A stretch of DNA of 64,000 bases from the NCBI GenBank assembly GCA_049680405.1, contig JBAUHS010000010.1, positions 3,777 through 67,776 of the forward strand. Direction: 5' to 3'. The notes below the pieces were generated by a model. It searched no databases, was not told the DNA's origin, and was given only the letters and a program-made list of their open reading frames with translations. The first letter of the stretch is position 1. Each line of letters opens with the position of its first letter. Below are positions 39,933 through 62,205 of this stretch, piece after piece. This stretch comes from Salaquimonas sp. (GTDB lineage: Bacteria; Pseudomonadota; Alphaproteobacteria; Rhizobiales; Rhizobiaceae). Both the position numbers and the translations under genes were made by a program.

Positions 39933-40381
39933 TATGCAGATATGTCCTTTGCGGGAACGGGAAACTCAAAGCAACCTACAATTCGTGGGCGCCAATGATT
40001 GCCAAGAGATGATTGAATGACACCAACGCGCTCATAGGCATGAACGAAGGTGTTCTCGCTCATCAAAATGCCAATATGTTTTGCCGGTAAATTAGATTGC
40101 CAGCGAAACAGAATTGCTCGTCCGATGGCAAACTCTTGCGCTGGAATCATGTGTTCATGCGCCGCAGCGAACAAGTGTTCTTGGCTATCGGCCTCACCCC
40201 AATCGGCAGAATACGCAGGAAGCTTTTGAGGTTCGCAGCCATAGAGACGGCGCCAAACGCCTCGTAGCAATCCCAAGCAATCACAACCAACTTGTTTTTT
40301 GGAAGCCTGATGACGATAAGGCGTACCGATCCACTCCCGGCATTCCGCCAAGATGATCTCAGTAGTTAAATCTGTGTTCAC
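39932..40381 (-). CDS. GTA g14-type NlpC/P60 cell-wall peptidase
   Basis: 149 aa. The catalytic Cys context GCDCLGLLRGVW and a downstream His. The gene junctions on both sides overlap. Confidence 0.85.
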   Translation of the reverse strand: MNTDLTTEIILAECREWIGTPYRHQASKKQVGCDCLGLLRGVWRRLYGCEPQKLPAYSADWGEADSQEHLFAAAHEHMIPAQEFAIGRAILFRWQSNLPAKHIGILMSENTFVHAYERVGVIQSSLGNHWRPRIVGCFEFPVPAKDISA

Positions 40382-41274
40382 GGGACGAGTGGCCCTCCAT
40401 CCATTTGATCTGAGTTATTTGCATAGCTCATTGCAAAGTCAGTTCCTGGAAGATGAGGAAAGCCTCTAAAATTGATAGTATTTGCAAATTTGGACTGACA
40501 GGTTTTAAGCGTTTTATCGCAACCGGGCCGAACGGTGATTTCATCTCCGATGCCAACGCTATGGTAAGCTCCAGACCACATAGACAACAAAACTTCATTG
40601 GTCGATGGGCCACGTTTCGTACTCGCAACTATCTCAATTGACTTGCCTTGGTTGGTGCCGGATTGAAATGTCAGCTTGCCCCCGGAAAACCAGTCATCCT
40701 GAAAACCGTCAAGTCCCGTGACGATCAATTGGTCCTTGTTCAAAACCTTAGAAACAACCGCTTGAACGCGAAAGCTCCCTTCAACATCAATCCTGCAATT
40801 TGCATCACCAAGTTTCGCGCTGCAGCGTCGGTCAAAGCGGCGCATTTTGGTTTGGTCAAGTTTGGCGGACAAGGATTTCAGCTCAGCTTTGAACACGCCA
40901 TCACTAAGTGATATCTCACCAAGCAAATAAGTTCCCATTAGAACCCTTTGCTCTGGTTGAGACCAGTTCACAACATAATGCCGAATGGACGCATTGTCAT
41001 AGACCCTTGTCGCAATATCCTCATCTGTGATCCTGTCAGATTGCAGGGCGCCCAATATTTCGTGATTGTCGGGAGTAAGGTTGTTTTGCATTTCAACCTG
41101 GCTGGCTTCAAATCCTGAACCCGCCTCGAAAACTACATCATCAAATTCGATATCAAGATCATGATCGGTAAATCCGAGGCTCGAGCCGTTTGTTAGCACA
41201 ATCTGCCAGCAGTTACTGAGCGTGATACATTCTGAATCCAGATGTGCTTGGAATTCGTTAGATATGGTTCTCAA
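40378..41274 (-). CDS. GTA g13-type hub protein (DUF2163 / BR0599 family)
   Basis: 298 aa. The N-terminus CWQIVLTNGSSLGFTDHD and the C-terminal FRGFPHLPG pattern are typical of phage BR0599/DUF2163. Position between g12 and g14. Confidence 0.85.
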   Translation of the reverse strand: MRTISNEFQAHLDSECITLSNCWQIVLTNGSSLGFTDHDLDIEFDDVVFEAGSGFEASQVEMQNNLTPDNHEILGALQSDRITDEDIATRVYDNASIRHYVVNWSQPEQRVLMGTYLLGEISLSDGVFKAELKSLSAKLDQTKMRRFDRRCSAKLGDANCRIDVEGSFRVQAVVSKVLNKDQLIVTGLDGFQDDWFSGGKLTFQSGTNQGKSIEIVASTKRGPSTNEVLLSMWSGAYHSVGIGDEITVRPGCDKTLKTCQSKFANTINFRGFPHLPGTDFAMSYANNSDQMDGGPLVP

Positions 41275-41921
41275 ATGACAATCTCCACCAAAGGAATGGA
41301 TGCAATTTCCCCAGCAATAAAATTCGTCATGCTTGCGGTAATTTCATCGGTCTCAAACCTAACTGGCACGTCAAACTCAAAGCCTGCATAAACGCTCTCG
41401 TTCAAAAGCGGCTGTTTACCAGTAAGGAACGCAATTTGGCCCGAAGTGGCATCCACAGTAAAATCCTGGCCTTCAACTTTCTGGATACCCCCAACAGAAA
41501 CAGAAACCGTTCCCTCCACTGGCTTGCGGATAGGCCTTTGCCATTTACCATCCCCGGAACCATAGGACTTGAGAAGCTGGAAAGAAGTTTTAGTTCCATC
41601 CCCGACACCAATCAGCTGATCGATCGGCGATATTTCAGATTTGGGAGAACAGGATTTATGATCGACCGGATCCTTGAAACGAAAACCGAATAATCTGCCG
41701 CGGCGCTCTTCGAAGAAAGCGATCACCTCAGCAATGTCATCAAGAGTCTTAACCCCATAACCGGCATTGTAACGTCGCCGAGAATTGGCCCAGCGGGCAT
41801 TACGTTGCTCCCGGCCGGAGCCCAATGTCACAATTTCGGTTCTGCGTTGAGGCCCGCCCGTTGCGCCGAGGGCAATGTCTGTTGGAAAGCGAGTCTCATG
41901 AAACGAGTTCAATGCTGTCAT
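41271..41921 (-). CDS. GTA g12-type distal tail protein (DUF2460)
   Basis: 216 aa. The N-terminus FHETRFPTDIALGATGGPQRRTEIVTLGSGREQRNARW is the DUF2460/TIGR02217 signature. Confidence 0.85.
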   Translation of the reverse strand: MTALNSFHETRFPTDIALGATGGPQRRTEIVTLGSGREQRNARWANSRRRYNAGYGVKTLDDIAEVIAFFEERRGRLFGFRFKDPVDHKSCSPKSEISPIDQLIGVGDGTKTSFQLLKSYGSGDGKWQRPIRKPVEGTVSVSVGGIQKVEGQDFTVDATSGQIAFLTGKQPLLNESVYAGFEFDVPVRFETDEITASMTNFIAGEIASIPLVEIVI

Positions 41922-41938
41922 CTCTTAATGCCTTTGGT

Positions 41939-42526
41939 TTAGAGTTTTCGCTGTCCGCGTTGAACTGTTCGAGCCAACATAGCCGTCAACTGCCCCTCAG
42001 ATCGTTTGAAGCTTGCTGCATCACTGGATTGAACATTGAAGACCACGTTTACCGGCGCTGCCGATGCTTTGGCAGCAACGCCCAATTTGCCGTCTGCTCC
42101 ACGGGTAAGCGGCATAACGGCTTCTGCGCCTGCTTCGCCCATCAAGCCTGTGCCCCCAGCAAAGGAAAACAGGCTGGGTGAGGAAACCACGCCGCCTTTT
42201 GCAAACGGAATTGGGCCTGCATTAGAATAGGCTCCACCCTTTGCATTTGGAACTGGCGCTGCAAAACTTGCGAGCACATTATTCATCAAACTTGAGATCG
42301 TGTTTTCGATTGGAGCAAACGCCTTGTTGAGTGCCATGGTTGAAAGACGCATGGCGATGGAGCGCAGCGTCTCCTCAAAACTCTTTCCCGTTATTGCAGC
42401 TGACTTGAGGGTGGAAGTAAATATCCTGCCAAAGTCCTTGGTACTGTCCTTTGCCGCATTCATAGCAGCGTTAAACGAAGACAGGTCGGCATTTACCGAA
42501 ACTGTTGTTTGGGGCGATTTATCCAA
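41939..42526 (-). CDS. GTA g11-type short tail tape measure protein
   Basis: 195 aa, Ala/Gly/Ser-rich. The motif GEAGAEAVMPL is typical of tape-measure C-terminal regions. Position between the chaperone ORFs and g12. Confidence 0.75.
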   Translation of the reverse strand: MDKSPQTTVSVNADLSSFNAAMNAAKDSTKDFGRIFTSTLKSAAITGKSFEETLRSIAMRLSTMALNKAFAPIENTISSLMNNVLASFAAPVPNAKGGAYSNAGPIPFAKGGVVSSPSLFSFAGGTGLMGEAGAEAVMPLTRGADGKLGVAAKASAAPVNVVFNVQSSDAASFKRSEGQLTAMLARTVQRGQRKL

Positions 42527-42527
42527 T

Positions 42528-42728
42528 TTAATATCCTTTGGTATCGGGATAGGCGTTGATTATGTCTTGCAGCTGCGATCTGGACATCGCAGTACGAGGC
42601 TGGTCCGGAAATTTTGCTTTAATTAAAAGGTTGAATTCCGGTAAGGTCAGCTGCCAAAACTCTTTGGGTTTCATTCCCAACACGCCAAAGGCAAAATTTG
42701 CTGCATTGCTCCACCAAAGCCCCCGCAT
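42528..42728 (-). CDS. GTA g10.1-type protein (rcc01693 / TIGR02216-like, tail assembly chaperone-associated)
   Basis: 66 aa. The FGVLGMKPKEFWQLTLPEFNLL pattern. Its ATG directly follows, in frame, the TGA of the upstream ORF. Confidence 0.7.
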   Translation of the reverse strand: MRGLWWSNAANFAFGVLGMKPKEFWQLTLPEFNLLIKAKFPDQPRTAMSRSQLQDIINAYPDTKGY

Positions 42729-43049
42729 TCAGCTGTCGCTTGTGCCAAAGCTGGCAATCAGTAAATCAGCAACAATTCTTGCAAAGCCTGCAGCACCATC
42801 AGTACATCTCATTTCTGAAATGTCTTGCCGGGAAATGTCATGGCCCCCGCCTTTCAGGCCAGCTTGAATGATGGCCATCAGATCAGCAGATGAAAACTTT
42901 CCCGCAGAAAGAATCTCAGCAAGCTTGGGTAGATCATCGACATGAAAATAGTCTTCAAGCTCTGCCAATGCGCCAAGGGTCAAGCAAAGTGTCCATTGCC
43001 GATCATTAAGTTCAACCGTGATTTCGCCTCTACGTGGGTTGGCCATCAA
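42729..43049 (-). CDS. GTA g10-type protein (gene transfer agent family / tail assembly chaperone-like)
   Basis: 106 aa. NPRRGEITVELNDRQWTLCLTLGALAELE is typical of the GTA family protein that follows the tail tube gene. Confidence 0.7.
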   Translation of the reverse strand: MMANPRRGEITVELNDRQWTLCLTLGALAELEDYFHVDDLPKLAEILSAGKFSSADLMAIIQAGLKGGGHDISRQDISEMRCTDGAAGFARIVADLLIASFGTSDS

Positions 43050-43459
43050 GTGATCACCTGAAAAGTGATGGAGCCTGCAGATTCCAAAACAATTTCGAAG
43101 GTCACCTCGCCATTGTGTTGACCGGCATATTCCAGCGCTGTTATCTGAAACAAACCTTCCAGAGCTCCAAATTCAGGAATGACCACCTGCCAGTTTTTTA
43201 TATCACCGGCAAAGAAGACATCTCTGATCCGTTCATCCGATGCTGCATCCTTGAAAATACCGGAACCATTGATTGAGGCACGGCGTAGGCCAGAGCCCCC
43301 CAGAAGCTCCCGCCATCTACCGGCTGATTCAGAATCGGTGATATCAACGGTTTCCGTGTTGAATGAAATCTGCCGGGACCGAAGTCCGGCCACGGTTACA
43401 AAACCATTGGGAGCATCATCGACCTTCAACAGAAGGTCTTTACCTTTTTGAGCGCTCAT
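43046..43459 (-). CDS. GTA g9-type major tail (tube) protein, TP901-1 family
   Basis: 137 aa. The GKDLLLKVDD...FVTVAGLRSRQISFNTETVDITD pattern. Confidence 0.85.
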   Translation of the reverse strand: MSAQKGKDLLLKVDDAPNGFVTVAGLRSRQISFNTETVDITDSESAGRWRELLGGSGLRRASINGSGIFKDAASDERIRDVFFAGDIKNWQVVIPEFGALEGLFQITALEYAGQHNGEVTFEIVLESAGSITFQVIT

Positions 43460-43486
43460 TGTTATTCCTTTGAAAATTATTGCAAA

Positions 43487-43897
43487 TCATTCGGTTATGG
43501 GTTCGGTGACTGCTCTGAATGTAGAACTTGCCGTGAAAAACCTGTTGTCTTTCGTGCGATTGCTGGTGGTTGTTTCCCATGTGAAATTGATCAGGTGGTG
43601 GCCATCAATCAGTTTTGGCATTGCTTTAAGGGCAGCTTTTACGGCATCAACTATCACTCCGACTTCCTTGCGCCCTTTCGCAGAAGACCAGGCGATAATT
43701 TCAATGAGATGCTCTTCTCCCGCTTCTGTGCCAGTGCTCCAATCGTCACTCTCAATTTTGCTAAACACCAGATAAGGAAAAACTGAATGATCTGGAACGC
43801 CGTCAAAGACCTGCCGACCACCAAGAATTGAAAGCAGGGGTTGATCACCTATCAAAGTATCGAAAATCGCCTTTTGGACTGAAATGGCCGCGTTCAT
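43487..43897 (-). CDS. GTA g8-type tail terminator/completion protein (DUF3168)
   Basis: 136 aa. DUF3168-like pattern VFDGVP....PYLVF...SDDWST...GEEHLIEIIAWS. Confidence 0.75.
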   Translation of the reverse strand: MNAAISVQKAIFDTLIGDQPLLSILGGRQVFDGVPDHSVFPYLVFSKIESDDWSTGTEAGEEHLIEIIAWSSAKGRKEVGVIVDAVKAALKAMPKLIDGHHLINFTWETTTSNRTKDNRFFTASSTFRAVTEPITE

Positions 43898-44070
43898 CTT
43901 TGTTGCTTCCTGAATTTTGAATCACCGGAAAATTTCTTGTTTCTGGCCTGTTTCTTCCGACTTTCATCACGTGTATTTCTGTGTTCAGCAGGAATATCCG
44001 TTTTTGGGAAAAGTGCTTTTTGCAAGGTTACCGAAAGGCTTTGGGTTGTGAATTCGACTGAAAACTTCAT
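43894..44070 (-). CDS. Unannotated 58-aa ORF between g7 and g8 (below the ORF-track length cutoff)
   Basis: My own minus-strand translation is MKFSVEFTTQSLSVTLQKALFPKTDIPAEHRNTRDESRKKQARNKKFSGDSKFRKQQR. The ATG overlaps the g7 stop (ATGA) and the stop overlaps the g8 ATG (ATGA). It exactly fills an otherwise empty 169-nt gap. Confidence 0.35.
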   Translation of the reverse strand: MKFSVEFTTQSLSVTLQKALFPKTDIPAEHRNTRDESRKKQARNKKFSGDSKFRKQQR

Positions 44071-44402
44071 TCCGTCTCTCTAACTTCACAAAGAAAGTAT
44101 CTTCCACTTTCATCATGGTCCGTGACAACATCGATCAAGAAAGTTCTGGAGCCAGAGACAAATCTCATACCCGGCTCCACCCCCGGTCTCTGGCGAATGT
44201 AAATCCAATGGGTGTGCTCGGTTCTGTTGCTATCTGCCTCTGCAACCAGAATTCCTTTGATCGGAATCAGTTTTGCCCACACATCAAATTGTGGGATCCA
44301 GGTTTCACTTACTCCGCCGCAGCCATCTTCTGACTCTGTTGGAGCTTCAAGCGACAATCTTACATTAAAATGACCGGACTGAAGAAATTGATGAACTGTC
44401 AA
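44067..44402 (-). CDS. GTA g7-type head closure / head-tail adaptor protein
   Basis: 111 aa. TIGR01563-like pattern WAKLIPIKG....A........THWIYIR......GMRF....RTF.I. Overlaps g6 by 4 nt. Confidence 0.8.
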   Translation of the reverse strand: MTVHQFLQSGHFNVRLSLEAPTESEDGCGGVSETWIPQFDVWAKLIPIKGILVAEADSNRTEHTHWIYIRQRPGVEPGMRFVSGSRTFLIDVVTDHDESGRYFLCEVRETE

Positions 44403-44968
44403 AGCCGCACCCTCCGGAAGGGAGCAATAAGCGTTTGAAACCCTTGCGGCTCATTGGCAGGCTGCTGGTCAATAGTGACGGCACCGCGAAACTCATAATT
44501 ATGGGCGACCAGCAGCAGTAGCGCCCGACGCAAACTGTCAGGAACATCTATTCCGGTATTGCCAAACCCAACCACAAGGTCGATCTCTACACCGTTAATT
44601 TTGCGTTGCGTATGAACTGCTGTCTTCACCAGCAAGCGAGAGGGAGTTGAAATTCTGTCTAGCTCCAGAGCTCCCAGCGGTACGCTTTCGGGCGAGCCAT
44701 TTGCATCATAGATGCGCATATCAAGAACCCCCTGAACAGGTCCTTTGCCCAATCTGAATTGATTGCTGTCTGAAAAGCCGTCAAAATATTCGCGCCAGAT
44801 CTGGGTGATGAGACTGACGCCAAGAATGACCTCAAGGTGATTCACAGCAGCCTTGATCAATCCAGTGAGATAATCATCATCATCTGAAGTCTCGATGCGC
44901 AAATGGCTTTTTACTTCGGCCAGAGTCAGCGGCAATGCAGCTGGTGGAGTGATTAAAACGGCAACCAT
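44399..44968 (-). CDS. GTA g6-type head-tail connector (phage gp6-like)
   Basis: The track ORF (to 45229) runs into the capsid gene. The start was reassigned to the Met at 44968, giving MVAVLITPPAALPLTLAEVKSHLRIETSDDDDYLTGLIKAA, the gp6-like signature. Confidence 0.75.
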   Translation of the reverse strand: MVAVLITPPAALPLTLAEVKSHLRIETSDDDDYLTGLIKAAVNHLEVILGVSLITQIWREYFDGFSDSNQFRLGKGPVQGVLDMRIYDANGSPESVPLGALELDRISTPSRLLVKTAVHTQRKINGVEIDLVVGFGNTGIDVPDSLRRALLLLVAHNYEFRGAVTIDQQPANEPQGFQTLIAPFRRVRL

Positions 44969-44995
44969 AAATTCTTCCAAATTGAGGGATGAATG

Positions 44996-45070
44996 AAAAG
45001 GCCCCACCCGGTTTAAAATACCGGATGGGGCCGCGATACACGCCGGCAAGGCACGAGGAGGCACCTTGCC
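44996..45070 (-). terminator. Tandem hairpins after the capsid gene; the distal one is a strong intrinsic terminator
   Basis: Minus strand, hairpin 1 is GGCAAGG-(12 nt)-CCTTGCC (45045-45070). Hairpin 2 is GGCCCCATCCGG-TATTTTAAA-CCGGGTGGGGCC (45000-45032): 12 bp with one G:U pair, followed by TTTTCATTC. Confidence 0.7.
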
Positions 45071-45089
45071 AAGAGCCGGGAGGAGAACT

Positions 45090-46424
45090 CTAAGCGGTAC
45101 CGAACTTGATGAGCTTGATGGCGTCAAAGTCTTGAATGCCGCCACCCACTCGCTTCGTGGTGTAGAAAAGAACATAAGGTTTGGCTGAATAAGGATCCCG
45201 CAATACGCGGACACCAGCACGATCAACAATCAAATAACCCCGATTGAAGTCCCCAAAAGCGATGGACAGGCTGTCTGTTGCTATATCCGGCATGTCTTCA
45301 GCCTCCAGAACCGGGAAGCCCATCAACATGGCTTTTTCACCAACTGTTGCAGGTGGTTGCCATAGATAATTGCCATCGGCGTCTTTCAGTTTACGAATGT
45401 CGGCCTGCGTGCGGCGGTTCATCAACCAGTTGGCATTTTGCCGATAGCCTGCCTTGAGAGAATAGATGCTTTCGACCAGGACATCAGAAGGGTCGGTGCT
45501 AACAAAATCACCATCACCGCCTGTTGGCGTATACCCAAGATTTCCCCAGCTCCAACTTGTTTCAGCAACTACCGGATTATCCAAAATACCCTTTGGTTTA
45601 TTCACCCCATCGCCGCTGATAAATGCGGCGCTTTCCTGCTCGGCAAAGGCCGTTTCAACTTCCTGCGCAAGCCAGGCATCAATATTGATGGCTGCATCAT
45701 CCAACAGCGCCGAAGTCGCCGCCGGCATTGCATACAGTTCCATTGTTGGGAATTGCAACTCAGATAACGACGGTGCTGCGGTTTGCGGTCGAAGATCAGT
45801 TTCTGAAACCCATCCTGTGGCGGGGCCTGTCATGGCAAATGGTTTCTTGTACATCGACGAAGATACCGTGATGACTGAAGCCACTGAACGAATAGGGGAA
45901 ATCATCGATAGACGACGGCCAATTTCTGAAGCCGTTTCGTCCGGCACCAAATACCCGCCATCGGGGTCAGAAGATGAGGACATTGCCTTTTCTTCAAAAC
46001 GTCTCAGATCGTTCTCATTACCTCTTCGCACATAACCATTGAAGGCATTCTTATGCTCGATTGAGGCAATTGAGTAGCCTTTTGAACTTTCCGAACCTGG
46101 CCTGCGGCTTTTCAGAAACAGCTGATCCATCAAATGTTTCTGCTGATCGAGCGCGGAGTTGATGCGGTTCATTTTCTCAGTGGTCACAACATCCGCACCT
46201 ACGCGGGTTTCGACTTGCGCCAAACGCTCGTCATTGGCTTCGCGAAAAGCCTCAAAAGCGATCATGAAGTCATCAAACGCTTCAGCAACTTCGCTGGCAT
46301 TGCCAACTGCAACTGTCGGAGAAAGCGTGGTTTCCATCAGATCGTTTTTACGCGAAAGCGCTTTGGTTTCAGGCGCGGCTTTTCTGCCGCCGGGTTTCCC
46401 CGTTCTGTTTGTCAGTTTATTCAT
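45090..46424 (-). CDS. GTA g5-type major capsid protein, HK97 family
   Basis: 444 aa. N-terminal delta-like region with FEAFREANDERL, and an HK97-fold core (...GGYLVPDE..., FPTMELYAMP, ...VDRAGVRVLRDPYSAKPYVLFYTTKRVGGG). Confidence 0.92.
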   Translation of the reverse strand: MNKLTNRTGKPGGRKAAPETKALSRKNDLMETTLSPTVAVGNASEVAEAFDDFMIAFEAFREANDERLAQVETRVGADVVTTEKMNRINSALDQQKHLMDQLFLKSRRPGSESSKGYSIASIEHKNAFNGYVRRGNENDLRRFEEKAMSSSSDPDGGYLVPDETASEIGRRLSMISPIRSVASVITVSSSMYKKPFAMTGPATGWVSETDLRPQTAAPSLSELQFPTMELYAMPAATSALLDDAAINIDAWLAQEVETAFAEQESAAFISGDGVNKPKGILDNPVVAETSWSWGNLGYTPTGGDGDFVSTDPSDVLVESIYSLKAGYRQNANWLMNRRTQADIRKLKDADGNYLWQPPATVGEKAMLMGFPVLEAEDMPDIATDSLSIAFGDFNRGYLIVDRAGVRVLRDPYSAKPYVLFYTTKRVGGGIQDFDAIKLIKFGTA

Positions 46425-46439
46425 GGTTTTTCCTATGAT

Positions 46440-47135
46440 TTAGGGATGAAAAATGCTGGCAGCTGCTCTGATGCGACTTGCCAACTGGCTTTTCCCTGTC
46501 ACCGCATCGCGCTGGCTTAGGGCATGGCGATAACCTTTGGTAACAACCAATCGAGCATCGCCTCGCGACAGACCGGCATCCCGCACGAGCCATCGCTCAA
46601 ATTCTCTTATTGTAGGGTTCTGTTTGGCTTGCCACGCAACACATGAAGGCATGCTTTTTACGGACTTTATCCGGGCGCTTTCCTGCATGGGAAATGTAAC
46701 GACAGATATCTCCCATAAATCCGCTTCTAGGATGCGTCTCGATCCGGTAAGTGGGTCCTGGCGGGACCGAATGGTTCGAAACCCGATTGACAGACCGTCA
46801 ACTGCTCCAGTTCGCATGAGCTCAAGAACCTCTCGGCCTTTCACCGCCCCGGTGGTAATCTTACCACGAACCTCCAAACCATGCTCGGTCTCAGATATGG
46901 CCTCCCAAACTCCGATCGGCTCATCAGGATTGTGCTGAAAAAGCATACGAATATTGGATGCTCCGCGCTTTGCCAAGGAAGCTGAAAATGCACCCGGCGC
47001 TACAATGTCATTGCCCAGATCCACCTCATTATACACGCTCGCATAACCAGAAAAATTTCCGTCCAATCGAACCTGCTCAAGATTGCTCGACACAAATTTC
47101 GTCTCACGCAATTTCGCCAAACTATTGCTGTTCAT
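46440..47135 (-). CDS. GTA g4-type prohead protease, HK97 family
   Basis: 231 aa. FSGYASVYNEVDLGNDIVAPGAF...MLFQHNPDEPIGVW...GLSIGF motifs. Confidence 0.9.
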   Translation of the reverse strand: MNSNSLAKLRETKFVSSNLEQVRLDGNFSGYASVYNEVDLGNDIVAPGAFSASLAKRGASNIRMLFQHNPDEPIGVWEAISETEHGLEVRGKITTGAVKGREVLELMRTGAVDGLSIGFRTIRSRQDPLTGSRRILEADLWEISVVTFPMQESARIKSVKSMPSCVAWQAKQNPTIREFERWLVRDAGLSRGDARLVVTKGYRHALSQRDAVTGKSQLASRIRAAASIFHP

Positions 47136-47156
47136 TCACAACTCCATATTCATCAA

Positions 47157-47501
47157 TCAGGATGTTTGATTGGGTAGTTTAATTTTATTTCCAAGCGCTC
47201 CGCGAAGGAGGCCCAAAGCCCACCATGCGCAAAGGCTGGCGGCTGTTGCCCCCATCAAGGCTATTTCGAATTTTGACAATTGATCGCTTACATCGAAATA
47301 GGATGCGATCTTGGCACCCGATGTCGGGCCAAAACTGATTCCAAGGATCACGCCGGTGATAAACCGAATTGCCGCTTCACGGCGGCCCTTTGGCAGCACA
47401 TAAGCAATTGAAATCGCTGAACCGAGAACTGCGCCAACACCTTTGGCAACCCAAAGCCAGGCGGCTTCGGGCAGATCGTAAAAGGCAATGTTACCGGTCA
47501 T
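47157..47501 (-). CDS. Small three-TM membrane protein in the g3.5 position (portal-protease spacer)
   Basis: 114 aa from the ATG at 47501, which overlaps the portal end by 11 nt. The hydrophobic helices are AAWLWVAKGVGAVLGSAISIAYVL, AIRFITGVILGISFG and FEIALMGATAASLCAWWALGLL. Confidence 0.5.
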   Translation of the reverse strand: MTGNIAFYDLPEAAWLWVAKGVGAVLGSAISIAYVLPKGRREAAIRFITGVILGISFGPTSGAKIASYFDVSDQLSKFEIALMGATAASLCAWWALGLLRGALGNKIKLPNQTS

Positions 47502-48720
47502 CGAAAGCTTGCCCCGTCCGGCTACCTTGGCCAATCGCTCCATAACCGGTGGCAAGTCGTTTTTCGTCTGGTGTCAGAAAATCTGCTTCACTCAACCGTT
47601 TCCATAACGCATCGCGGTCTACAGAAAGTGCCTCAATCCGGTCCCGATCGATATCAAGGCGTAAACAGTGCGACCAATTGGGGCCAAGCCAGTTTTGAAT
47701 TGCCGTAACAACCCGCGCCACCATTGGTAAAATTGTTTGACGCCATAAAGCCAGGTTCGCTTCACGATAATTGGAATAGGTATTGTCCCCAGGAATTCCG
47801 AGCAGCATTGGCGGCACGCCGAAGGCAAGAGCAATATCGCGGGCCGCAGCGTTTCTTGCCTCGATGAAATCCATATCTTTCGGACTGAAACCCATTTGCT
47901 TCCAATCCAAGCCTCCCTCAAGAAGCATGGGTCGGCCTGCCCTACTCGCTCCTGTATATCCTTCTTCAAGTTCGACCTTGAGGCGTTCAAATTGTTCATC
48001 AGTCAGGTTGGTGCTTTCCCCCGAACCATAGACCAATGCACCGGACGGTCTTGCTGAATTATCCAACAGTGCCTTGTTCCATTTGCTCGCAGAGTTATGG
48101 ATATCAAGGGCCATATGGGCAGAAGCGAGAGGCGATACTCCCTCAAAATCATCTAGTGGATTGTAAAGTGCCAGATGCAGAATTGGGGAATGAACATCAG
48201 ACATTTCGTATCGAGTCTTGCGACCATTCACGCTGTAATCATAGGCTATCGGCCATCCGCTTTCATCGCGAATGCTTTCCATTCGGTCTGCCCGAAGCGC
48301 ATAAAGCTCTTTTGGAAAGCCATCCAGTTCGCTCTGGGACAAATAGGCATTCCCGCAAATCAACAGGCTCGAGAAAACGGCGTCAAAAAGCCCCTGGCCG
48401 CTCTGTCTGGCATTGGGTCTATTAAGCAAATCCAGCAATGGATGGGTATCCATCTCATCGTCGCCATCATAGGCTAACAGAGGAAGTGCCGCTGCTGACT
48501 CCGACAATAATCGGATACAGCGGTGAACAATGGGATTCTTGATATATCCTTCCCGCGCCAACCCACCATAGCTCGCATCACACCAGTTCGCCTCACCTAA
48601 TCCATGAAGGGCTATCAGCGGATTAAAGGCAGACTTCCGTTCGAGAGCCGAGGCGGTTTTGACGGTCAAAGGCCAAGTCTTATCGCTACCCTGGCGAAGC
48701 CAGCGCATAATTTTGCTCAT
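47491..48720 (-). CDS. GTA g3-type portal protein, HK97 family
   Basis: 409 aa. Pattern NPIVHRCIRLLSESAAALPL...GNAYL... and the C-terminal DEKRLATGY. Confidence 0.92.
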   Translation of the reverse strand: MSKIMRWLRQGSDKTWPLTVKTASALERKSAFNPLIALHGLGEANWCDASYGGLAREGYIKNPIVHRCIRLLSESAAALPLLAYDGDDEMDTHPLLDLLNRPNARQSGQGLFDAVFSSLLICGNAYLSQSELDGFPKELYALRADRMESIRDESGWPIAYDYSVNGRKTRYEMSDVHSPILHLALYNPLDDFEGVSPLASAHMALDIHNSASKWNKALLDNSARPSGALVYGSGESTNLTDEQFERLKVELEEGYTGASRAGRPMLLEGGLDWKQMGFSPKDMDFIEARNAAARDIALAFGVPPMLLGIPGDNTYSNYREANLALWRQTILPMVARVVTAIQNWLGPNWSHCLRLDIDRDRIEALSVDRDALWKRLSEADFLTPDEKRLATGYGAIGQGSRTGQAFDDR

Positions 48721-48747
48721 TTGAATTCCAATATTATTAGTGGTGAA

Positions 48748-50109
48748 TCAGGCTGACCGAATTCTCGGATTGCCCCGTGAACTTAATGCCAGTTCATGAA
48801 GTGCCCAGACCATTGCATCTAGCCGGTCGGGAGATTTCCCGTTGGCCAAACCATCCGGTCCGAAGTCACACAATTGATCTTCAAGTTCAGGAAATGAACC
48901 CACGTGCCGAACTCTTCCTTTTGCATATAACATTGCGATGGGTTCAGCCCGAAGCCATTTACCCCGGCTAGCCCGAACCGCCCTGATAGGCAATGAGGGA
49001 TCTGCCATACCAAGAACAGATTTTACCATGTCGCCGCCCTGATTAACTTCGGCAATCACGCAGTCTGCTTCCAGACGATGATAAAGCGCTGTTACCACGC
49101 TTGCCCATTTTTCAGGTACAACTCCTTGAATGGTAACATCTGCCAACAGATAGCAAATTCCGTCACCGTCTTTTCCAGCGGCAACAATGCCGCAGGCATC
49201 CGACTTTGCGTTCGAACTGGCGGGAGGATCAACAGCTATGATAATTCGCTTCAAAGGCGGATGGTTTTTTACCCGCAATTCATCAAGTTGAGAACGCTGC
49301 CAAAGGGCGCCTTCCCGATCTTCAATAATTTCTCCATTCAACTCCTGGCGACCCAAGCGAGTTCCTGCATATTCATCTGTAACATAGGCAAGAAAACCCG
49401 GAGCGAGAAACCCGCTATTCACAAATGTGGAAGAACGGGTCACTGACGTTGATTTTTCTTTCAGCATTTTCTTCAGAAAAGCCAATGGCTTAGGTGTTGT
49501 TGTAATCATCTGCCGCGGCATTGACCCAAGGCGCATGCAAAATTGCAGCATGTCAAATGTCGTTTCAAGATGTCTCCACTTCACAACTTCGTCGCACCAG
49601 GCTGCCCCAAATTGACTACCCCTCAAGCTTTCAGGATCGTTAGCCGAAAAGACTTGGCCTATCGTGCCATTTGGCCATTCCAACTGTCTGCGGGATGCGT
49701 TCCATTTAGGACGCTTGTCTTTACTGTGAATAGCCATCAGGCCGGATTCACCCTCGATCATGACGGCGAGCGCATCCTGGTAGGTTTCGCCAATGAGTGC
49801 GACGCGGCCCGCCGCATCGCCAAGGGCATAATGATCTTTCAGAATAATAGACTTTAGCCATTCCGCGCCGGACCTTGTTTTTCCGGCACCCCGGCCACCC
49901 ATCAGCAACCATTTTCGCCATTGGCCCGTAGGCGGGATCTGCGGCTCATGGGCCCATGCCCACCAGGTTCGTGACAGGTTCTCTTTTTCATGCGGGTTTA
50001 GTCTGCTCAGAAACTCCTGTCTTTGCTCCGCCGTTCGCAAGGTTCGCAATTTGCTTTTCAAGCGCGTTATGGAATTCCAAAGTATCTTGTGGGTGGAGAC
50101 TGCCAGCAT
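48748..50109 (-). CDS. GTA g2-type terminase large subunit
   Basis: 453 aa. WWAWAHEPQIPPTGQWRKWLLMGGRGAGKTRSGAEW (Walker A) and a C-terminal nuclease domain. The start is uncertain (ATG at 50109 or a TTG at 50061/50049/50040). Confidence 0.92.
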   Translation of the reverse strand: MLAVSTHKILWNSITRLKSKLRTLRTAEQRQEFLSRLNPHEKENLSRTWWAWAHEPQIPPTGQWRKWLLMGGRGAGKTRSGAEWLKSIILKDHYALGDAAGRVALIGETYQDALAVMIEGESGLMAIHSKDKRPKWNASRRQLEWPNGTIGQVFSANDPESLRGSQFGAAWCDEVVKWRHLETTFDMLQFCMRLGSMPRQMITTTPKPLAFLKKMLKEKSTSVTRSSTFVNSGFLAPGFLAYVTDEYAGTRLGRQELNGEIIEDREGALWQRSQLDELRVKNHPPLKRIIIAVDPPASSNAKSDACGIVAAGKDGDGICYLLADVTIQGVVPEKWASVVTALYHRLEADCVIAEVNQGGDMVKSVLGMADPSLPIRAVRASRGKWLRAEPIAMLYAKGRVRHVGSFPELEDQLCDFGPDGLANGKSPDRLDAMVWALHELALSSRGNPRIRSA

Positions 50110-50521
50110 CCGTAATTTTTTCCAGATTTGCGATCATTTCCTCGATGGTCAAGACTCCCTTTGCAATCGCCAGAACATTTCTGGTTTTCGTTTGGGCATT
50201 GCCTTCATTTTCTTCAGAAGCATTAAAACCCGTTTGTTTTTTCAACATCCGTTTCAAAAAATTCAAAATCTGTTTCGCTGTTCGTGCATTGGCCAAACGA
50301 AGATCGTCTTGGGATAAAGTCTTCGGAGTTGTTCTACTGCGAGAACTTGATCTATTTCTTTTTCCGGACTGCCATACTCCATCACAAGACCTTTCGATGA
50401 TCTCGGGTAAACCAATTCCCGACACTACCGAAATTTGCTCCAAGTCCAAACCATGCTTTTCATATAATGCGCGTAAAATTTGCCAACGCTCATCAGATGC
50501 ACGGGATTTATCCCCATTCAT
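49988..50521 (-). CDS. GTA g1-type small terminase-like protein (HTH N-terminus)
   Basis: It is the first gene of the cluster. From the ATG at 50521, the 177-aa protein begins with an HTH-like segment ERWQILRALYEKHGLDLEQISVVSGIGLPEIIERS, then a basic linker and a helical C-terminus. The call rests mainly on position. Confidence 0.55.
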   Translation of the reverse strand: MNGDKSRASDERWQILRALYEKHGLDLEQISVVSGIGLPEIIERSCDGVWQSGKRNRSSSRSRTTPKTLSQDDLRLANARTAKQILNFLKRMLKKQTGFNASEENEGNAQTKTRNVLAIAKGVLTIEEMIANLEKITDAGSLHPQDTLEFHNALEKQIANLANGGAKTGVSEQTKPA

Positions 50522-50625
50522 TTGGAAACCTTTATGATTGGCATTTTGAATTTGAAAATTTGCGCAAAAGCATTTTGAGGGGCGAAGAAGCTTCAATTAA
50601 TGCCCACTTCTTCGACCATGAACAG

Positions 50626-50654
50626 ATACTATCAAATCACCGTCTCGGTGTCAA
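50626..50654 (-). promoter_or_regulatory. Candidate sigma70-type promoter for the GTA cluster
   Basis: The minus strand reads TTTTTATTGACA-CCGAGACGGTGATTTGA-TAGTAT. The -35 TTGACA lies at 50649-50654, the spacer is 17 nt and the -10 TAGTAT lies at 50626-50631. An A/T-rich UP-like stretch precedes it. It lies in the ycgN-g1 spacer. Confidence 0.45.
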
Positions 50655-50673
50655 TAAAAATATGAATATATTC

Positions 50674-51141
50674 CTAATTATTTTCATCTTCATCGGGCCA
50701 GTTGACCAAATGGTCTTCATAATCCTCAGGTTTTAACCCTATTTCGGGTACAATTCGCCCCAAAACAGAGATGCCGGCCTTATGGACCGATTGAGGATCT
50801 CCAGAGACCAGAGGATGCCATGGCCGCAGATCCTTACCTTCTTTGACAAGACGATAGCCGCAGGTGGGCGGAAGCCAGTCAATCTCAGCAACTTTTTCCG
50901 GTGTGAGGTCAATGCAATCCGGGACAACATCAAACCGGAAATCGTAGCTTTTGCATCGACAGGTTTCACAATCGAGTTCGCTGCAGGCAATATTCGTGTA
51001 GTGAATCTCGCCAGTATCCCAGTCTTCAAGCTTGTTGAGGCAGCATTTCCCACAGCCATCGCAGAGAGATTCCCATTCCTGGGAGCTCATTTCTTCAAGT
51101 TTTTTGGTTTTCCAGAAAGGCGCGTTCAAATTATGCCCCAA
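50674..51141 (-). CDS. ycgN: YcgN-family (UPF0260) cysteine-cluster protein
   Basis: 155 aa. [33 protein letters not shown]...CRCKSY is typical of YcgN. Confidence 0.8.
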
Positions 51142-59457: not shown

Positions 59458-59874
59458 ATGACTGATATCAATGAGATTATTGAAAATTTCGAATTCCTGG
59501 AAGAATGGGAAGATCGCTATAAATATCTGATTGAACTTGGCGATCAACTTGAGCCGTATCCTGAAGAATTGCAGAACAGCGAAACGAAAGTACAAGGCTG
59601 TGTCAGCCAGGTCTGGATTGCTAGTAATACTCATAACGGCCATGATCCGATTATCGACTTTATCGGAACTTCCGACGCGCATATCGTACGCGGCCTGATT
59701 GCTATCACATTGGCAATTTTCTCGGGCAAAACGGCAAGCGAAATCGGTTCAATTAATGAGCAGGCAATCTTTACCTCACTTGGACTGTCAGAACATATTA
59801 CGCCACAGCGCTCGAATGGTCTTAGATCCATGGTCGCGCGGATCAAGGAAATATCCGCAAACGCTAAGAGTTAA
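59458..59874 (+). CDS. sufE: SufE-family sulfur acceptor protein
   Basis: 138 aa. The FEFLEEWEDRYKYLIELG...KVQGCVSQVWI motif contains the active-site Cys context. Confidence 0.85.
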   Translation: MTDINEIIENFEFLEEWEDRYKYLIELGDQLEPYPEELQNSETKVQGCVSQVWIASNTHNGHDPIIDFIGTSDAHIVRGLIAITLAIFSGKTASEIGSINEQAIFTSLGLSEHITPQRSNGLRSMVARIKEISANAKS

Positions 59875-59897: not shown

Positions 59898-60734
59898 TTA
59901 TACAAAAGAATCCGGACGATAGCTGCTATCTCCCCAATGGTTCATTGGTTGCTTCCTTGGAGACGGGCGCAACCCATAATGTCTGACCAGCTCCCGCAAT
60001 GCAGTGCGCAGCATCAGCTTGGCTGAACGTGGCGGCCAATGAAGCTCTTTCTCTATTGTCTCAAGCCCTTTGAGAAAACAGCAAACATCCAGCAATATGT
60101 TGGAAAGCTCCGGCCCGAGCGCATTGACCATCTTCTCTATTCGTTTTCGGGCATCCATGGCAAAGTCAGAAATATCGGCTCCCATATTTGCGCTGCGCGA
60201 GCCCGTGGCAACACTTGCGGACCAGTTTGCTGAAATTCTTGGCTGTAACTGAGATTTTTCAAAATCAGACCGTAAACGCTCCCCAGCCTGGAACTCAAAT
60301 TCATTTAACCAGCATTTTCCATGCTTGTCCTTACGGGTATAGAGCCGGGACAAGGGCGATTCATTTTCGTTTACAGTGACCTGACTGGCTATTCCATTTT
60401 CCGCGATCGTTTTGACAACCGGAGCCAAATGTTGCGAGCGGTAATCCATATCAGGGTGCAATGCCGCAACCAGAACTGCCCTTCCCTCCGTAGTGATCGT
60501 GATGTCGTTTTCACATATGCTTAAAAATCCTTGCTTCTTGCATCTGAAAACTAGGTCAGATTCAAATTTGTAGGTTTTACCTTTTAGCTGAATCAGAAAC
60601 TGCGCGGCGCTCGCTTGAAAATGGGCGACCTCGTTGTTTGCATTTAGCAGCAGCTTCAAAAGCCTTAGCTGAGCCTTCTTTTGGTCTTTGCCTTTTGCAT
60701 CAGTCATGGGTTTTCTGCCTGTCAGCCAATTCAC
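59898..60734 (-). CDS. GafZ-like protein (DUF6456-type; C-terminal half of the GafA GTA activator / anti-terminator)
   Basis: 269-278 aa. The blocks ESPLSRLYTRKDKHGKCWLNEFEFQAGERLRSDF and LLDVCCFLKGLETIEKELHWPPRSAKLMLRTAL match what I recall as the DUF6456 signature. It overlaps the upstream DnaA-like HTH gene. Confidence 0.6.
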   Translation of the reverse strand: MNWLTGRKPMTDAKGKDQKKAQLRLLKLLLNANNEVAHFQASAAQFLIQLKGKTYKFESDLVFRCKKQGFLSICENDITITTEGRAVLVAALHPDMDYRSQHLAPVVKTIAENGIASQVTVNENESPLSRLYTRKDKHGKCWLNEFEFQAGERLRSDFEKSQLQPRISANWSASVATGSRSANMGADISDFAMDARKRIEKMVNALGPELSNILLDVCCFLKGLETIEKELHWPPRSAKLMLRTALRELVRHYGLRPSPRKQPMNHWGDSSYRPDSFV

Positions 60735-61146
60735 TCAGCGCCCGAGCGGAAACCAAAAGATTTTCCATTGCTTCCAGGCGCTTATCAAACTCCTGATTAT
60801 CCCGGAGATCTTCAACCAGCTTGCAGGCATGGGAAATCGTGGTGCGGTCACGGCCCATAAAATCTGCGACCCTGTGATAGGGAACCGAAAATACCGTATG
60901 CATCAAATACATCGCTACTTGGCGGGCAAGGCAGATATCGGCTTTCCCTCTTGAAGTGCCTGTCAGTTCCTTTGGCTCAATTCTCTCAAGAATGGAAACC
61001 AGCTTCAATACGAGGTTTCCCGCTATCCCATCATATTCTTGCTGTGTCTGGCTGACGTTTATTGGTTTGACCGCAGCAATAGGCGATCCCACTGATATGG
61101 GTCTGGGTTTATTATTCAAATAATCAGTTACGCTGTGATACATCAT
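60700..61146 (-). CDS. GafY-like protein (DnaA domain IV-type HTH; N-terminal half of the GafA GTA activator)
   Basis: 148 aa. ARQVAMYLMHTVFSVPYHRVADFMGRDRTTISHACKLVEDLR is a Bac_DnaA_C-type HTH. A GGGAGA RBS precedes the ATGATG start. Confidence 0.6.
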   Translation of the reverse strand: MMYHSVTDYLNNKPRPISVGSPIAAVKPINVSQTQQEYDGIAGNLVLKLVSILERIEPKELTGTSRGKADICLARQVAMYLMHTVFSVPYHRVADFMGRDRTTISHACKLVEDLRDNQEFDKRLEAMENLLVSARALSELADRQKTHD

Positions 61147-61273
61147 GCTCTCCCATAAAAGGACTATATTCCTATTATGGGAATTGCAACCTTGAAATGC
61201 ATATCAAATGGAGAGATTTTCCAGCCAAAAAGGATTCTCTTAAAAAACTCAATGACTTAATGCGGTAATCAGA

Positions 61274-61672
61274 ATGTTGCTTCGAAATCTTATCCCCCTG
61301 TTTCAGTTGGAGTGCAGACTTTTCTCTTTTCAGAGAACCAAATTGAACCTTAAGCAACAACAAATTGCCCTTGAGATTGAGCGCAAGATCGCGAGCCATT
61401 GCCATGATTCAATCGCTAGATCCTGCACTCTGGCTCTGAACGGATACCAGCTTGAAAGAGCCGTAAAACACTTAACTGGACTGGAGTTGGATCTGGTGTG
61501 TGCAGATCAAACGGACGTTTGCATGATACTGGAGAGGTTGGAACGGTTGCAGAAAGGACTTCCTCAAAAAGGTTTTCAGGATTTGGCTAAATTTGACACA
61601 AACCGATTGATCGTATTGAACCAGTCGATCAATGGGTTGAGGCAGATTCTATGTGTTATTCCTGGGACATAA
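61274..61672 (+). CDS. Hypothetical Leu-rich 132-aa protein (weak call)
   Basis: It is the only plus-strand ORF in the 585-bp mucR-gafY spacer and ends directly at a bidirectional terminator. No recognisable domain. It competes with a 76-aa minus-strand ORF (61175..61405). Confidence 0.25.
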   Translation: MLLRNLIPLFQLECRLFSFQRTKLNLKQQQIALEIERKIASHCHDSIARSCTLALNGYQLERAVKHLTGLELDLVCADQTDVCMILERLERLQKGLPQKGFQDLAKFDTNRLIVLNQSINGLRQILCVIPGT

Positions 61673-61707
61673 AAAACTCCGCAAAACCAAAGCCCAGCGG
61701 AGTTTTT
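61671..61707. terminator. Bidirectional rho-independent terminator (mucR 3' end / end of the plus-strand ORF)
   Basis: The sequence is AAAAAACTCCGC-(14 nt)-GCGGAGTTTTT: a GC stem flanked by an A-run and a T-run, so it reads as hairpin plus U-tract on both strands. Confidence 0.65.
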
Positions 61708-61731: not shown

Positions 61732-62205
61732 TTATTTGGCTTTTCGATAGCCTTTTTTCCGGCCCAAACCTTTTTCGCGGGCAAGGCTGGATCGCTTTTC
61801 AGAATAGCTCGGTGCGACCATTGGATAATCTGGTGGCAAATCCCATTTTTCACGATATTCTTCTGGGGACAGATCAAAATGCGAGCGCAGATGACGTTTC
61901 AATGATTTGAAATGCTTTCCATCCTCAAGGCAAATTATGTAGTCGCGAAATACTGATTTTTTTGGATTCACAGCTGGCTTAAGGTCTATTTTAACTTCGC
62001 TCTTACCATTTATAGACAGGCTTTTGAATGCCCGGTGCACTTCACCAATCAGGTTTGGTAAATCAGTGGTCGAAACAGGATTATTGCTAACATAGGCAGC
62101 AATAACTTCTGAAGTGAGCTCGACAATCATGGATTCATCATCAAACTCTTGTTGTTTCATATCAATTTCTTCAAGCATGGGTTTTCGTTCTTTCTTATCA
62201 TCCAA
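61732..62205 (-). CDS. mucR: MucR/Ros family zinc-finger transcriptional regulator
   Basis: ELTSEVIAAYVSNNPV..DLPNLI and the CLEDGKHFKSLKRHLRSHFDLSPEEYREKWDLPPDYPMVAPSY zinc-finger core. The start may be a downstream Met. Confidence 0.9.
   Translation of the reverse strand: MDDKKERKPMLEEIDMKQQEFDDESMIVELTSEVIAAYVSNNPVSTTDLPNLIGEVHRAFKSLSINGKSEVKIDLKPAVNPKKSVFRDYIICLEDGKHFKSLKRHLRSHFDLSPEEYREKWDLPPDYPMVAPSYSEKRSSLAREKGLGRKKGYRKAK

Follow-up and report, generated by a model that had tools for sequence, protein, structure and literature searches.

A split GafA-type gene pair, gafY and gafZ, likely controls a nearby RcGTA-type gene transfer agent cluster in Salaquimonas sp.

We analyzed a 64,000-nucleotide stretch of DNA from Salaquimonas sp. 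(assembly GCA_049680405.1, contig JBAUHS010000010.1, positions 3,777 to 67,776; hereafter the window), in which two overlapping genes lie upstream of a gene transfer agent (GTA) cluster of the Rhodobacter capsulatus (RcGTA) type (Table 1). An initial annotation, made from the sequence without database searches, had read the two genes as a pair of the GafY/GafZ type. The protein of 148 amino acids (aa) matched Pfam Bac_DnaA_C (E 9.9e-14, 51.6 bits, cutoff 31.5) and, in a sequence search of the PDB, the structure of E. coli DnaA domain IV (1J1V, E 1.8e-5). The 269-aa protein matched Pfam DUF6456 (E 1.9e-46, 157.9 bits, cutoff 26.3) over profile positions 2-135 of 136. Both scores thus exceed the Pfam cutoffs, in agreement with the domains proposed earlier. 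Across 35 aligned homologues, the columns of the blocks by which DUF6456 had been recognised (ESPL..L..R, D.CCFLKGLE and WPPRSAK) vary little or not at all. Altogether, 5283 homologues of GafZ were found. In public annotation, gafZ is called only "DUF6456 domain-containing protein" and gafY an unnamed DnaA-like protein.

The ATG of gafY is preceded at 2 nt by GGGAGAG, which we read from the sequence as its ribosome binding site. For gafZ, the ATG is also the start annotated by NCBI in GCA_049682575.1, an assembly of the same Salaquimonas sp. metagenome-assembled genome (MAG; Hyphomicrobiales, Salaquimonadaceae), whose protein is 100% identical to the window GafZ. An alternative GTG start would extend gafZ to 59898..60734 (278 aa) and its overlap with gafY from 8 to 35 nt, exactly the range given before. 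Overlaps of 4 to 11 nt were seen in the related loci L010 and L012-L014 and in Caulobacter locus L006. The 8-nt overlap implies that the two genes are probably translationally coupled.

Table 1. Positions of the gene pair, its predicted target and the surrounding features in the window.
Feature	Position	Strand	Details
gafY orthologue (alias hdaB)	60700..61146	-	148 aa, ATG start, DnaA-domain-IV-type helix-turn-helix
gafZ orthologue, putative processive anti-terminator	59898..60707	-	269 aa, ATG start, DUF6456
gafY/gafZ overlap ATGACTGA	60700..60707	-	8 nt, gafZ start over gafY stop
Conserved C-terminal tail of GafZ	59898-59966	-	Residues 247-269, ~23 aa
Putative gafYZ core promoter	61161..61189	-	Predicted -35 TTGCAA (61189-61184), likely -10 TATAGT (61168-61163)
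GGAA-N4-TTCC-type box GGAATATAGTCC	61172-61161	-	One mismatch; overlaps the likely gafYZ -10
Second copy of the box TAGGAATATATTCATA	50661..50676	-	7 bp upstream of the GTA -35
GTA cluster promoter	50626..50654	-	TTGACA, 17-nt spacer, TAGTAT; TG before the -10
Palindrome CACCG-AGA-CGGTG, candidate GafZ-binding element	50650-50638	-	In the -35/-10 spacer
Conserved block CATGGTCGAAGAAGTGGG	50603..50620	-	Initially transcribed region, about +1 to +18
RcGTA-type head-tail cluster g1 to g15, target operon	36066..50521	-	Pfam and NCBIfam matches
Predicted intrinsic terminator within the operon	45000..45032	-	57 nt past the capsid stop, 31 nt before the g6 (connector) start
mucR/ros zinc-finger regulator	61732..62205	-	Pfam ROS_MUCR, E 3.9e-47; conserved upstream neighbour
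mucR terminator	~61668-61705	-	Clean hairpin and T-run, AAAAACTCCGC...GCGGAGTTTTTT, directly 3' of mucR
sufE	59458..59874	+	Pfam SufE, E 1.7e-43; conserved downstream neighbour, convergent with gafZ
Small open reading frame	61274..61672	+	132 aa; divergent from gafY, fills the spacer to mucR
Histidine kinase	57406-58752	-	Best NCBIfam match DivJ (Caulobacter cell-cycle kinase), E 6.6e-64, below the equivalog cutoff

The Caulobacter orthologues were located by scanning a genome collection with the published cloning primer for NA1000 gafY (Tran and Le 2024, supplement), which returned nine Caulobacter loci. Since the NA1000 gafZ forward primer was exact in none of the nine, the C. vibrioides type strain DSM 9893 (L006) was taken as reference. 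Its gafY, marked by the primer, encodes 122 aa ending in ...HAQDLP, in agreement with the published reverse primer, and its gafZ, which overlaps gafY by 4 nt, encodes 244-245 aa ending in ...RHYRMA, in agreement with the published gafZ reverse primer. The two reference proteins match the same two Pfam models as the window proteins (DUF6456 in Caulobacter GafZ, E 5.4e-44). The window GafY was 40% identical to C. vibrioides GafY over 96 aa (E 3e-22), a region that spans the DnaA-like GRDRTT..HAC, and the window GafZ was 37% identical to its counterpart over the C-terminal 135 aa only (BLASTP, E 7e-25). When GafZ from the window clade was compared with the nine Caulobacter GafZ by hhalign, columns 8-246 aligned colinearly with columns 12-241 (probability 99.5%, E 2.4e-23). 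This profile-profile match covers the full length, and the N-terminal halves of GafZ are therefore homologous too. Judged by these alignments, both proteins are orthologues of Caulobacter GafY and GafZ, which bears out the pair assignment of the initial annotation.

GafY and GafZ have been described as the N- and C-terminal parts of GafA (PMC9632790), and a DUF6456 protein serves as representative of the gafA family (PMC9765227). In PMC9638019, GafA as a BLAST query returned proteins annotated as DUF6456 domain-containing. The correspondence of the pair to R. capsulatus GafA is taken from these published statements.

We further modeled GafZ with AlphaFold2 from 35 sequences. In the model (mean pLDDT, the predicted local distance difference test, 73.9), residues 10-85 form an N-terminal alpha/beta domain of good confidence, and the C-terminal helices are long. 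A PDB sequence search with GafZ gave no relative (best E 0.55, irrelevant), in agreement with Tran and Le (PMC11150451) that no solved relative exists, and a query of IMG/VR viral contigs with the single GafZ protein returned no match. In Hyphomicrobiales, GafZ ends in a conserved tail with W258 and G259 and then D/S-Y-R-P around P265 (WG..DYRP). The tail was of low confidence in the model and is lacking in Caulobacter GafZ.

The predicted target of the pair is the GTA head-tail cluster. Its genes encode g1, the terminase TerL, portal, DUF6107, S78 protease, capsid, the gp6 connector, the proteins for head completion and tail completion, tube, GTA-gp10, the RcGTA tape measure, DUF2460, hub, NlpC/P60 and megatron. 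The megatron matched NF048004 with 1576 bits (cutoff 800), and further GTA-specific matches were RcGTA_tape, GTA_TIM, GTA-gp10, DUF2460 and Gp84/BR0599. All 15 or more genes were intact with full-length domain matches, showing that the cluster is real and complete. It had been placed about 9 kb from the pair and in the same orientation. Indeed, both lie on the minus strand, and the distance from the end of gafZ (59898) to the GTA promoter or the g1 start (50654 / 50521) is 9.2-9.4 kb. The open reading frame (ORF) pair, its domains, the overlap and the nearby GTA cluster are not explained by chance.

Two side observations concern clusters of this type. In its longest ORF (start 50109), TerL shares ~120 nt with g1, which stops at 49988-49990 (overlap 49988-50109, minus strand), and its Pfam terminase domain is not reached before residue 69. 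TerL probably starts further downstream, and the g1-TerL junction needs re-annotation. In addition, hundreds of IMG/VR contigs (L098-L177) are RcGTA-type clusters of ~14-15 kb whose capsids are 60-82% identical to that of the window, and GTAs are therefore catalogued there as viruses.

The linkage of gafYZ to the cluster recurs across the clade. The genes in the 9.3-kb gap encode DUF5330, a DivJ-like histidine kinase, a peptidoglycan-binding protein, DUF1491, DUF2336, DUF1254/DUF1214, PBP1A and a CxxCxxCC protein. They stand in the same order, from gafZ to terminase, in relatives with 37-55% GafZ identity (five contigs fetched by protein identity). Among 80 metagenomic loci, nearly all longer ones keep the gene order from mucR to TerL, with TerL ~10.3 kb past the gafZ start in six loci and 7.2 kb in one. 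We therefore conclude that the proximity of gafYZ and the GTA cluster is inherited synteny, and a 9-kb proximity special to this genome was rejected, as spacing and intervening genes are shared by dozens of related metagenomic loci. For Hyphomicrobiales, Sherlock and Fogg 2022 (PMC9638019) describe gafA as split into two genes, with a 22-32 kDa gafA homologue, a small DnaA-like gene before it, sufE downstream and mucR upstream. More widely, of 208 alphaproteobacterial genomes that bear a GTA, 196 have gafA, and gene and cluster co-evolve (Kogay et al., PMC9765227).

Upstream of gafY lies a putative core promoter, whose hexamers (TTGCAA and TATAGT) are predicted. An alignment of gafY upstream regions revealed a conserved element, ATAGGAATATAGTCCT, with the core GGAA-N4-TTCC, which was invariant in 6/6 aligned loci. 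Allowing at most one mismatch, 64 of 71 distinct regions upstream of gafY had the box, among them Caulobacter L004 and L006, over a background of 0.14 per 280 nt. A longer version of the motif, with 18 positions, was matched at 15-16 of them by all nine Caulobacter loci. Gozzi et al. (PMC9632790) reported that RogA, a LexA/cI-like protein that represses gafYZ, bound in purified form to fragments spanning the gafYZ core promoter. This region has two GGAA-N4-TTCC inverted repeats, both of which are readable in L006. The same study reports that RogA is common in Rhizobiales. On inspection, the shared motif was judged to be neither a CtrA box nor a DnaA box.

The GTA promoter was the best sigma-70-like match in 35.5-51.3 kb (10/12). 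The palindrome in its spacer is a candidate GafZ-binding element, as in C. crescentus a different palindrome, the GafZ-binding element (ZBE), was mapped between -35 and -10 (PMC11150451). In the corresponding syntenic place, 10 related loci keep the sequence TTGACACCG-N3-CGGTG, and the architecture of 11 aligned loci reads [ATAGGAA-N4-TTC] TTGACA CCG-N3-CGGTG N5-6 TAGnnT N5 YAYSGTCGGARAAGTG. Three IMG/VR contigs reaching far enough upstream show the same architecture, which brings the total to 14 loci. The last element, YAYSGTCGGARAAGTG in consensus, lies at the start of the transcript, is kept in 11/11 aligned promoters and opens with a -10-like hexamer. By analogy with the lambda Q loading site, we speculate that it could act as a pause or loading element.

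A copy of the box also lies just upstream of this promoter. When the 16-mer was searched with up to three mismatches, two sites were found in the 64 kb against 0.12 expected, one at the gafY promoter and one at the GTA promoter. It stands next to the -35 in 11/11 aligned GTA promoters. In nine it abuts the -35, and in the window and L013 it lies further upstream by 10 bp (one helical turn). The three IMG/VR promoters carry it as well. The duplication of the box at the structural promoter suggests direct repression of the cluster too. The main mechanistic rival of a repressor site is that the box is GafY's own, used to contact sigma-70 region 4 at the GTA promoter and for autoregulation at its own promoter. 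Activators in contact with sigma region 4 usually sit where the box does in nine of 11 promoters, abutting the -35, and Caulobacter GafY binds RpoD domains 3-4 as well as its own promoter and the GTA promoter (PMC11150451), with no GafY motif definable in Caulobacter (PMC9632790). However, the Caulobacter fragments with GGAA-N4-TTCC bound purified RogA (PMC9632790), and the mapped Caulobacter GafY element is a different one (ACTATG, -123 to -113). Moreover, a symmetric 4-N4-4 palindrome is less suited to a monomeric DnaA-domain-IV fold than to a dimeric repressor of the LexA/cI kind, its overlap with the likely -10 of gafY is a repressor's position, and a consensus -35 needs no recruiter. We thus consider it unlikely that GafY is the protein for which the box is made.

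The shared box also bears on the role of the 148-aa protein itself. Its Caulobacter orthologue CCNA_01111 was first described as HdaB, a titrator of HdaA that keeps DnaA from regulatory inactivation and aids replication restart after stationary phase; homologues from three Alphaproteobacteria were active in the assay (PMC7049699), and the window protein comprises little beyond DnaA domain IV. If this were its main function, the link to the GTA would be secondary. Yet those phenotypes stem from overexpression, and the gene appears translationally coupled to gafZ, is syntenic with the GTA cluster throughout the clade and shares its operator motif with the GTA promoter. A protein that is mainly HdaB is therefore very unlikely here.

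A scan of the cluster for intrinsic terminators gave a single outstanding site on the coding strand, between the capsid and connector genes. The predicted hairpin has a 13-bp stem with 10 G-C pairs and is followed by UUUUCAUU; its minimum free energy was -32 kcal/mol (z -5.06), and 0 of 200 shuffles folded as well. A similar hairpin with a T-run 3' of the capsid gene was detected in 35 of 78 related GTA clusters from IMG/VR, a lower bound given the strict detector. Furthermore, L014, L020 and L036 have canonical leader terminators between promoter and g1. Tail genes behind a strong terminator are what a processive anti-terminator would be needed for.

Taken together, these results make it likely that the pair is a gafY-gafZ operon, i.e. 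a split GafA, which controls the RcGTA-type cluster 9.3 kb downstream. The best-supported reading, we infer, is the Caulobacter model, in which the anti-termination mechanism of GafZ is established (PMC11150451), transferred to this clade with local differences. In the off state, a RogA-type repressor encoded outside the window would occupy the box overlapping the gafYZ core promoter and probably also the second box adjoining the GTA promoter. Upon derepression, GafY and GafZ would be made together. GafY, through its DnaA-domain-IV helix-turn-helix (HTH), would act at GTA-related promoters via sigma-70, while GafZ would dock on CACCG-N3-CGGTG between the GTA -35 and -10 and join the departing RNA polymerase. 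GafZ would then carry the polymerase past a leader hairpin and the terminator at 45000-45032, so that g6-g15 (neck, tail and baseplate) are expressed. The assignment of each protein to its element, as well as termination and read-through, are predictions. That the cluster is regulated, functional and inducible via gafYZ appears a reasonable expectation, supported by the intact pair, the intact cluster and the conserved cis elements.

Several observations weigh against this switch. For this organism and its order the evidence is sequence-based, and the papers searched report no production of RcGTA-type particles in the clade. Among the window ORFs scanned, including 10 candidates in 1-36 kb, there was no RogA homologue (HTH and S24). 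GafY requires IHF in Caulobacter, but upstream of the window GTA promoter neither a Caulobacter-type GafY-binding element (YBE) nor an IHF site was recognised. Given the consensus -35 and extended -10, GafY may have a lesser or altered part as activator in the window; a Caulobacter GTA promoter that was given a consensus -35 became independent of GafYZ (PMC11150451). The spacer palindrome is like the Caulobacter ZBE in position (-35/-10 spacer), whereas its sequence is unrelated. As an element significant by itself, CACCG-N3-CGGTG was rejected, with two sites in the window against 1.0 expected, and because it is not rare in the window its weight comes from its conserved position only. A Foldseek search of the PDB with the GafZ model gave nothing better than E 0.4, and the sigma-like HTH reported for GafZ was confirmed neither by this search nor by the AlphaFold2 model. 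As a terminator, the leader hairpin (50584-50617) is unsupported, since it has no U-tract. Finally, in the closest gafZ relative (54% identity), the region past the CxxCxxCC gene (20091-20500 in L010/L011/L016) lacks TTGACACCG-N3-CGGTG and holds small membrane-like ORFs in place of the conserved promoter; the locus ends there.

Some of these points would also fit a pair that is kept for a host function apart from particle production, next to a GTA cluster that is silent or decaying and offers no useful handle for induction. Homologues of gafYZ in the same synteny have been scored as fitness or virulence factors in Brucella and Agrobacterium, and the missing reports of particles and the non-conserved promoter of L010 agree with such a function. 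So does L015, a Rhizobiaceae MAG, in which an IS1595-family transposase gene lies directly past the operator box and the GTA -35 (20273-20801), suggesting that its GTA promoter was disrupted by the insertion. Decay is at odds, however, with the intact, full-length genes of the window cluster, and with the retention of promoter, operator and terminator across loci with only ~40% GafZ identity. Moreover, gafA phylogeny tracks GTA phylogeny (PMC9765227). A host function separate from the GTA is thus quite improbable, and the gafYZ switch is retained.

The neighbours of the pair were also examined. As the hairpin lies directly 3' of mucR, gafYZ is not co-transcribed with that gene. With A and T runs on its flanks, the hairpin could serve as terminator for mucR as well as for the small ORF convergent with it. 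This small ORF had no Pfam or NCBIfam match and is uncalled in the NCBI annotation of the MAG. An antisense ORF of 60-178 aa is nevertheless found in the gafY-mucR spacer of 52/52 loci, and 39 of the 52, including that of the window, form a single BLASTP cluster, being most alike at the C-terminus (KFD.NR.I.L). Possibly, it belongs to the gafYZ switch as a component so far overlooked. On the other side, Caulobacter L006 also keeps sufE and a DivJ-like kinase beside gafYZ. From Hyphomicrobiales to Caulobacter (L006 830-1621), a DivJ-type kinase remains in linkage with sufE and gafYZ. The surroundings of the GTA regulators, with mucR and a divJ-like gene, are therefore an old cell-cycle neighbourhood.

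A rewired version of the switch is a tentative possibility. It would differ from the Caulobacter model and combine a near-consensus sigma-70 promoter of the head-tail cluster that works without a recruiter, double repression of regulator and target through the RogA-type operator of gafYZ, productive transcription only with GafZ loaded in the manner of lambda Q and, perhaps, a further component such as an anti-repressor encoded by the fast-evolving divergent ORF. In this joint reading, the spacer palindrome together with the -10-like block at +1 would be the Q-like site.

What the locus adds is modest in kind and specific in detail. The pair is a further example of a published, widespread arrangement, its distance from the cluster is normal for the clade, and it represents no system of a new kind. 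What is gained is a conserved set of operator, promoter and terminator, which hints at somewhat different wiring. Two genes gain a correct functional name, and the neighbouring phage-like cluster is marked as a regulated GTA rather than a dead prophage. As the box, the promoter with its spacer palindrome and the post-capsid terminator are kept across many uncultured Hyphomicrobiales, the Caulobacter model becomes testable in this order. This raises the comparative question of whether RogA repression followed by GafZ anti-termination is order-wide, and whether the structural operon, too, is a direct target of the repressor.

Compared with known systems, the window is closest in gene order to the split gafA loci of Hyphomicrobiales (PMC9638019, Fig. 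S2), of which it is one more example. The GTA linkage, the shared box, the promoter palindrome and the divergent ORF were not found described in the available part of that account. With GafY (CCNA_01111, HdaB) and GafZ (CCNA_01112) of C. crescentus, the pair shares the organisation as two genes with a stop/start overlap and the Pfam domains Bac_DnaA_C and DUF6456, whereas the window GafY has ~25 additional N-terminal residues. The window gafYZ lies 9 kb from its cluster, in contrast to Caulobacter, where CCNA_01111-2 and CCNA_02861-80 are far apart. The box has the half-sites, the spacing and the place on the gafYZ core promoter of the C. crescentus RogA operator (GGAA-N4-TTCC), but there is one copy per promoter in the window and two in Caulobacter, and the window has an extra copy at its GTA promoter. 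The -35 of the GTA promoter is consensus here and degenerate in Caulobacter. Both clusters have terminators within them, by prediction in the window; the clear one of the window is 3' of the capsid gene rather than the first gene, and no counterpart of the Caulobacter 150-bp repeat terminator was noticed in the window.

To promoter-loaded processive anti-terminators such as lambda Q, which Tran and Le invoke for GafZ (PMC11150451), and Pseudomonas AlpA, the resemblance is functional only. It consists of a binding element, here a candidate, in the -35/-10 spacer, a -10-like sequence where the transcript starts and downstream terminators that would need read-through. These proteins have no similarity to GafZ in sequence or fold (Foldseek; also PMC11150451). 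In R. capsulatus GafA (rcc01865), according to the literature, the N-terminal DnaA-like HTH corresponds to GafY and the C-terminal DUF6456 region to GafZ, the C-terminal part binds DNA over the -10, the -35 and the site at which transcription starts, and the protein is the direct activator of an RcGTA-type cluster. GafA is, however, a single 42-kDa polypeptide with a central region that binds the omega subunit of RNA polymerase, whereas in the window these modules are divided between two proteins.

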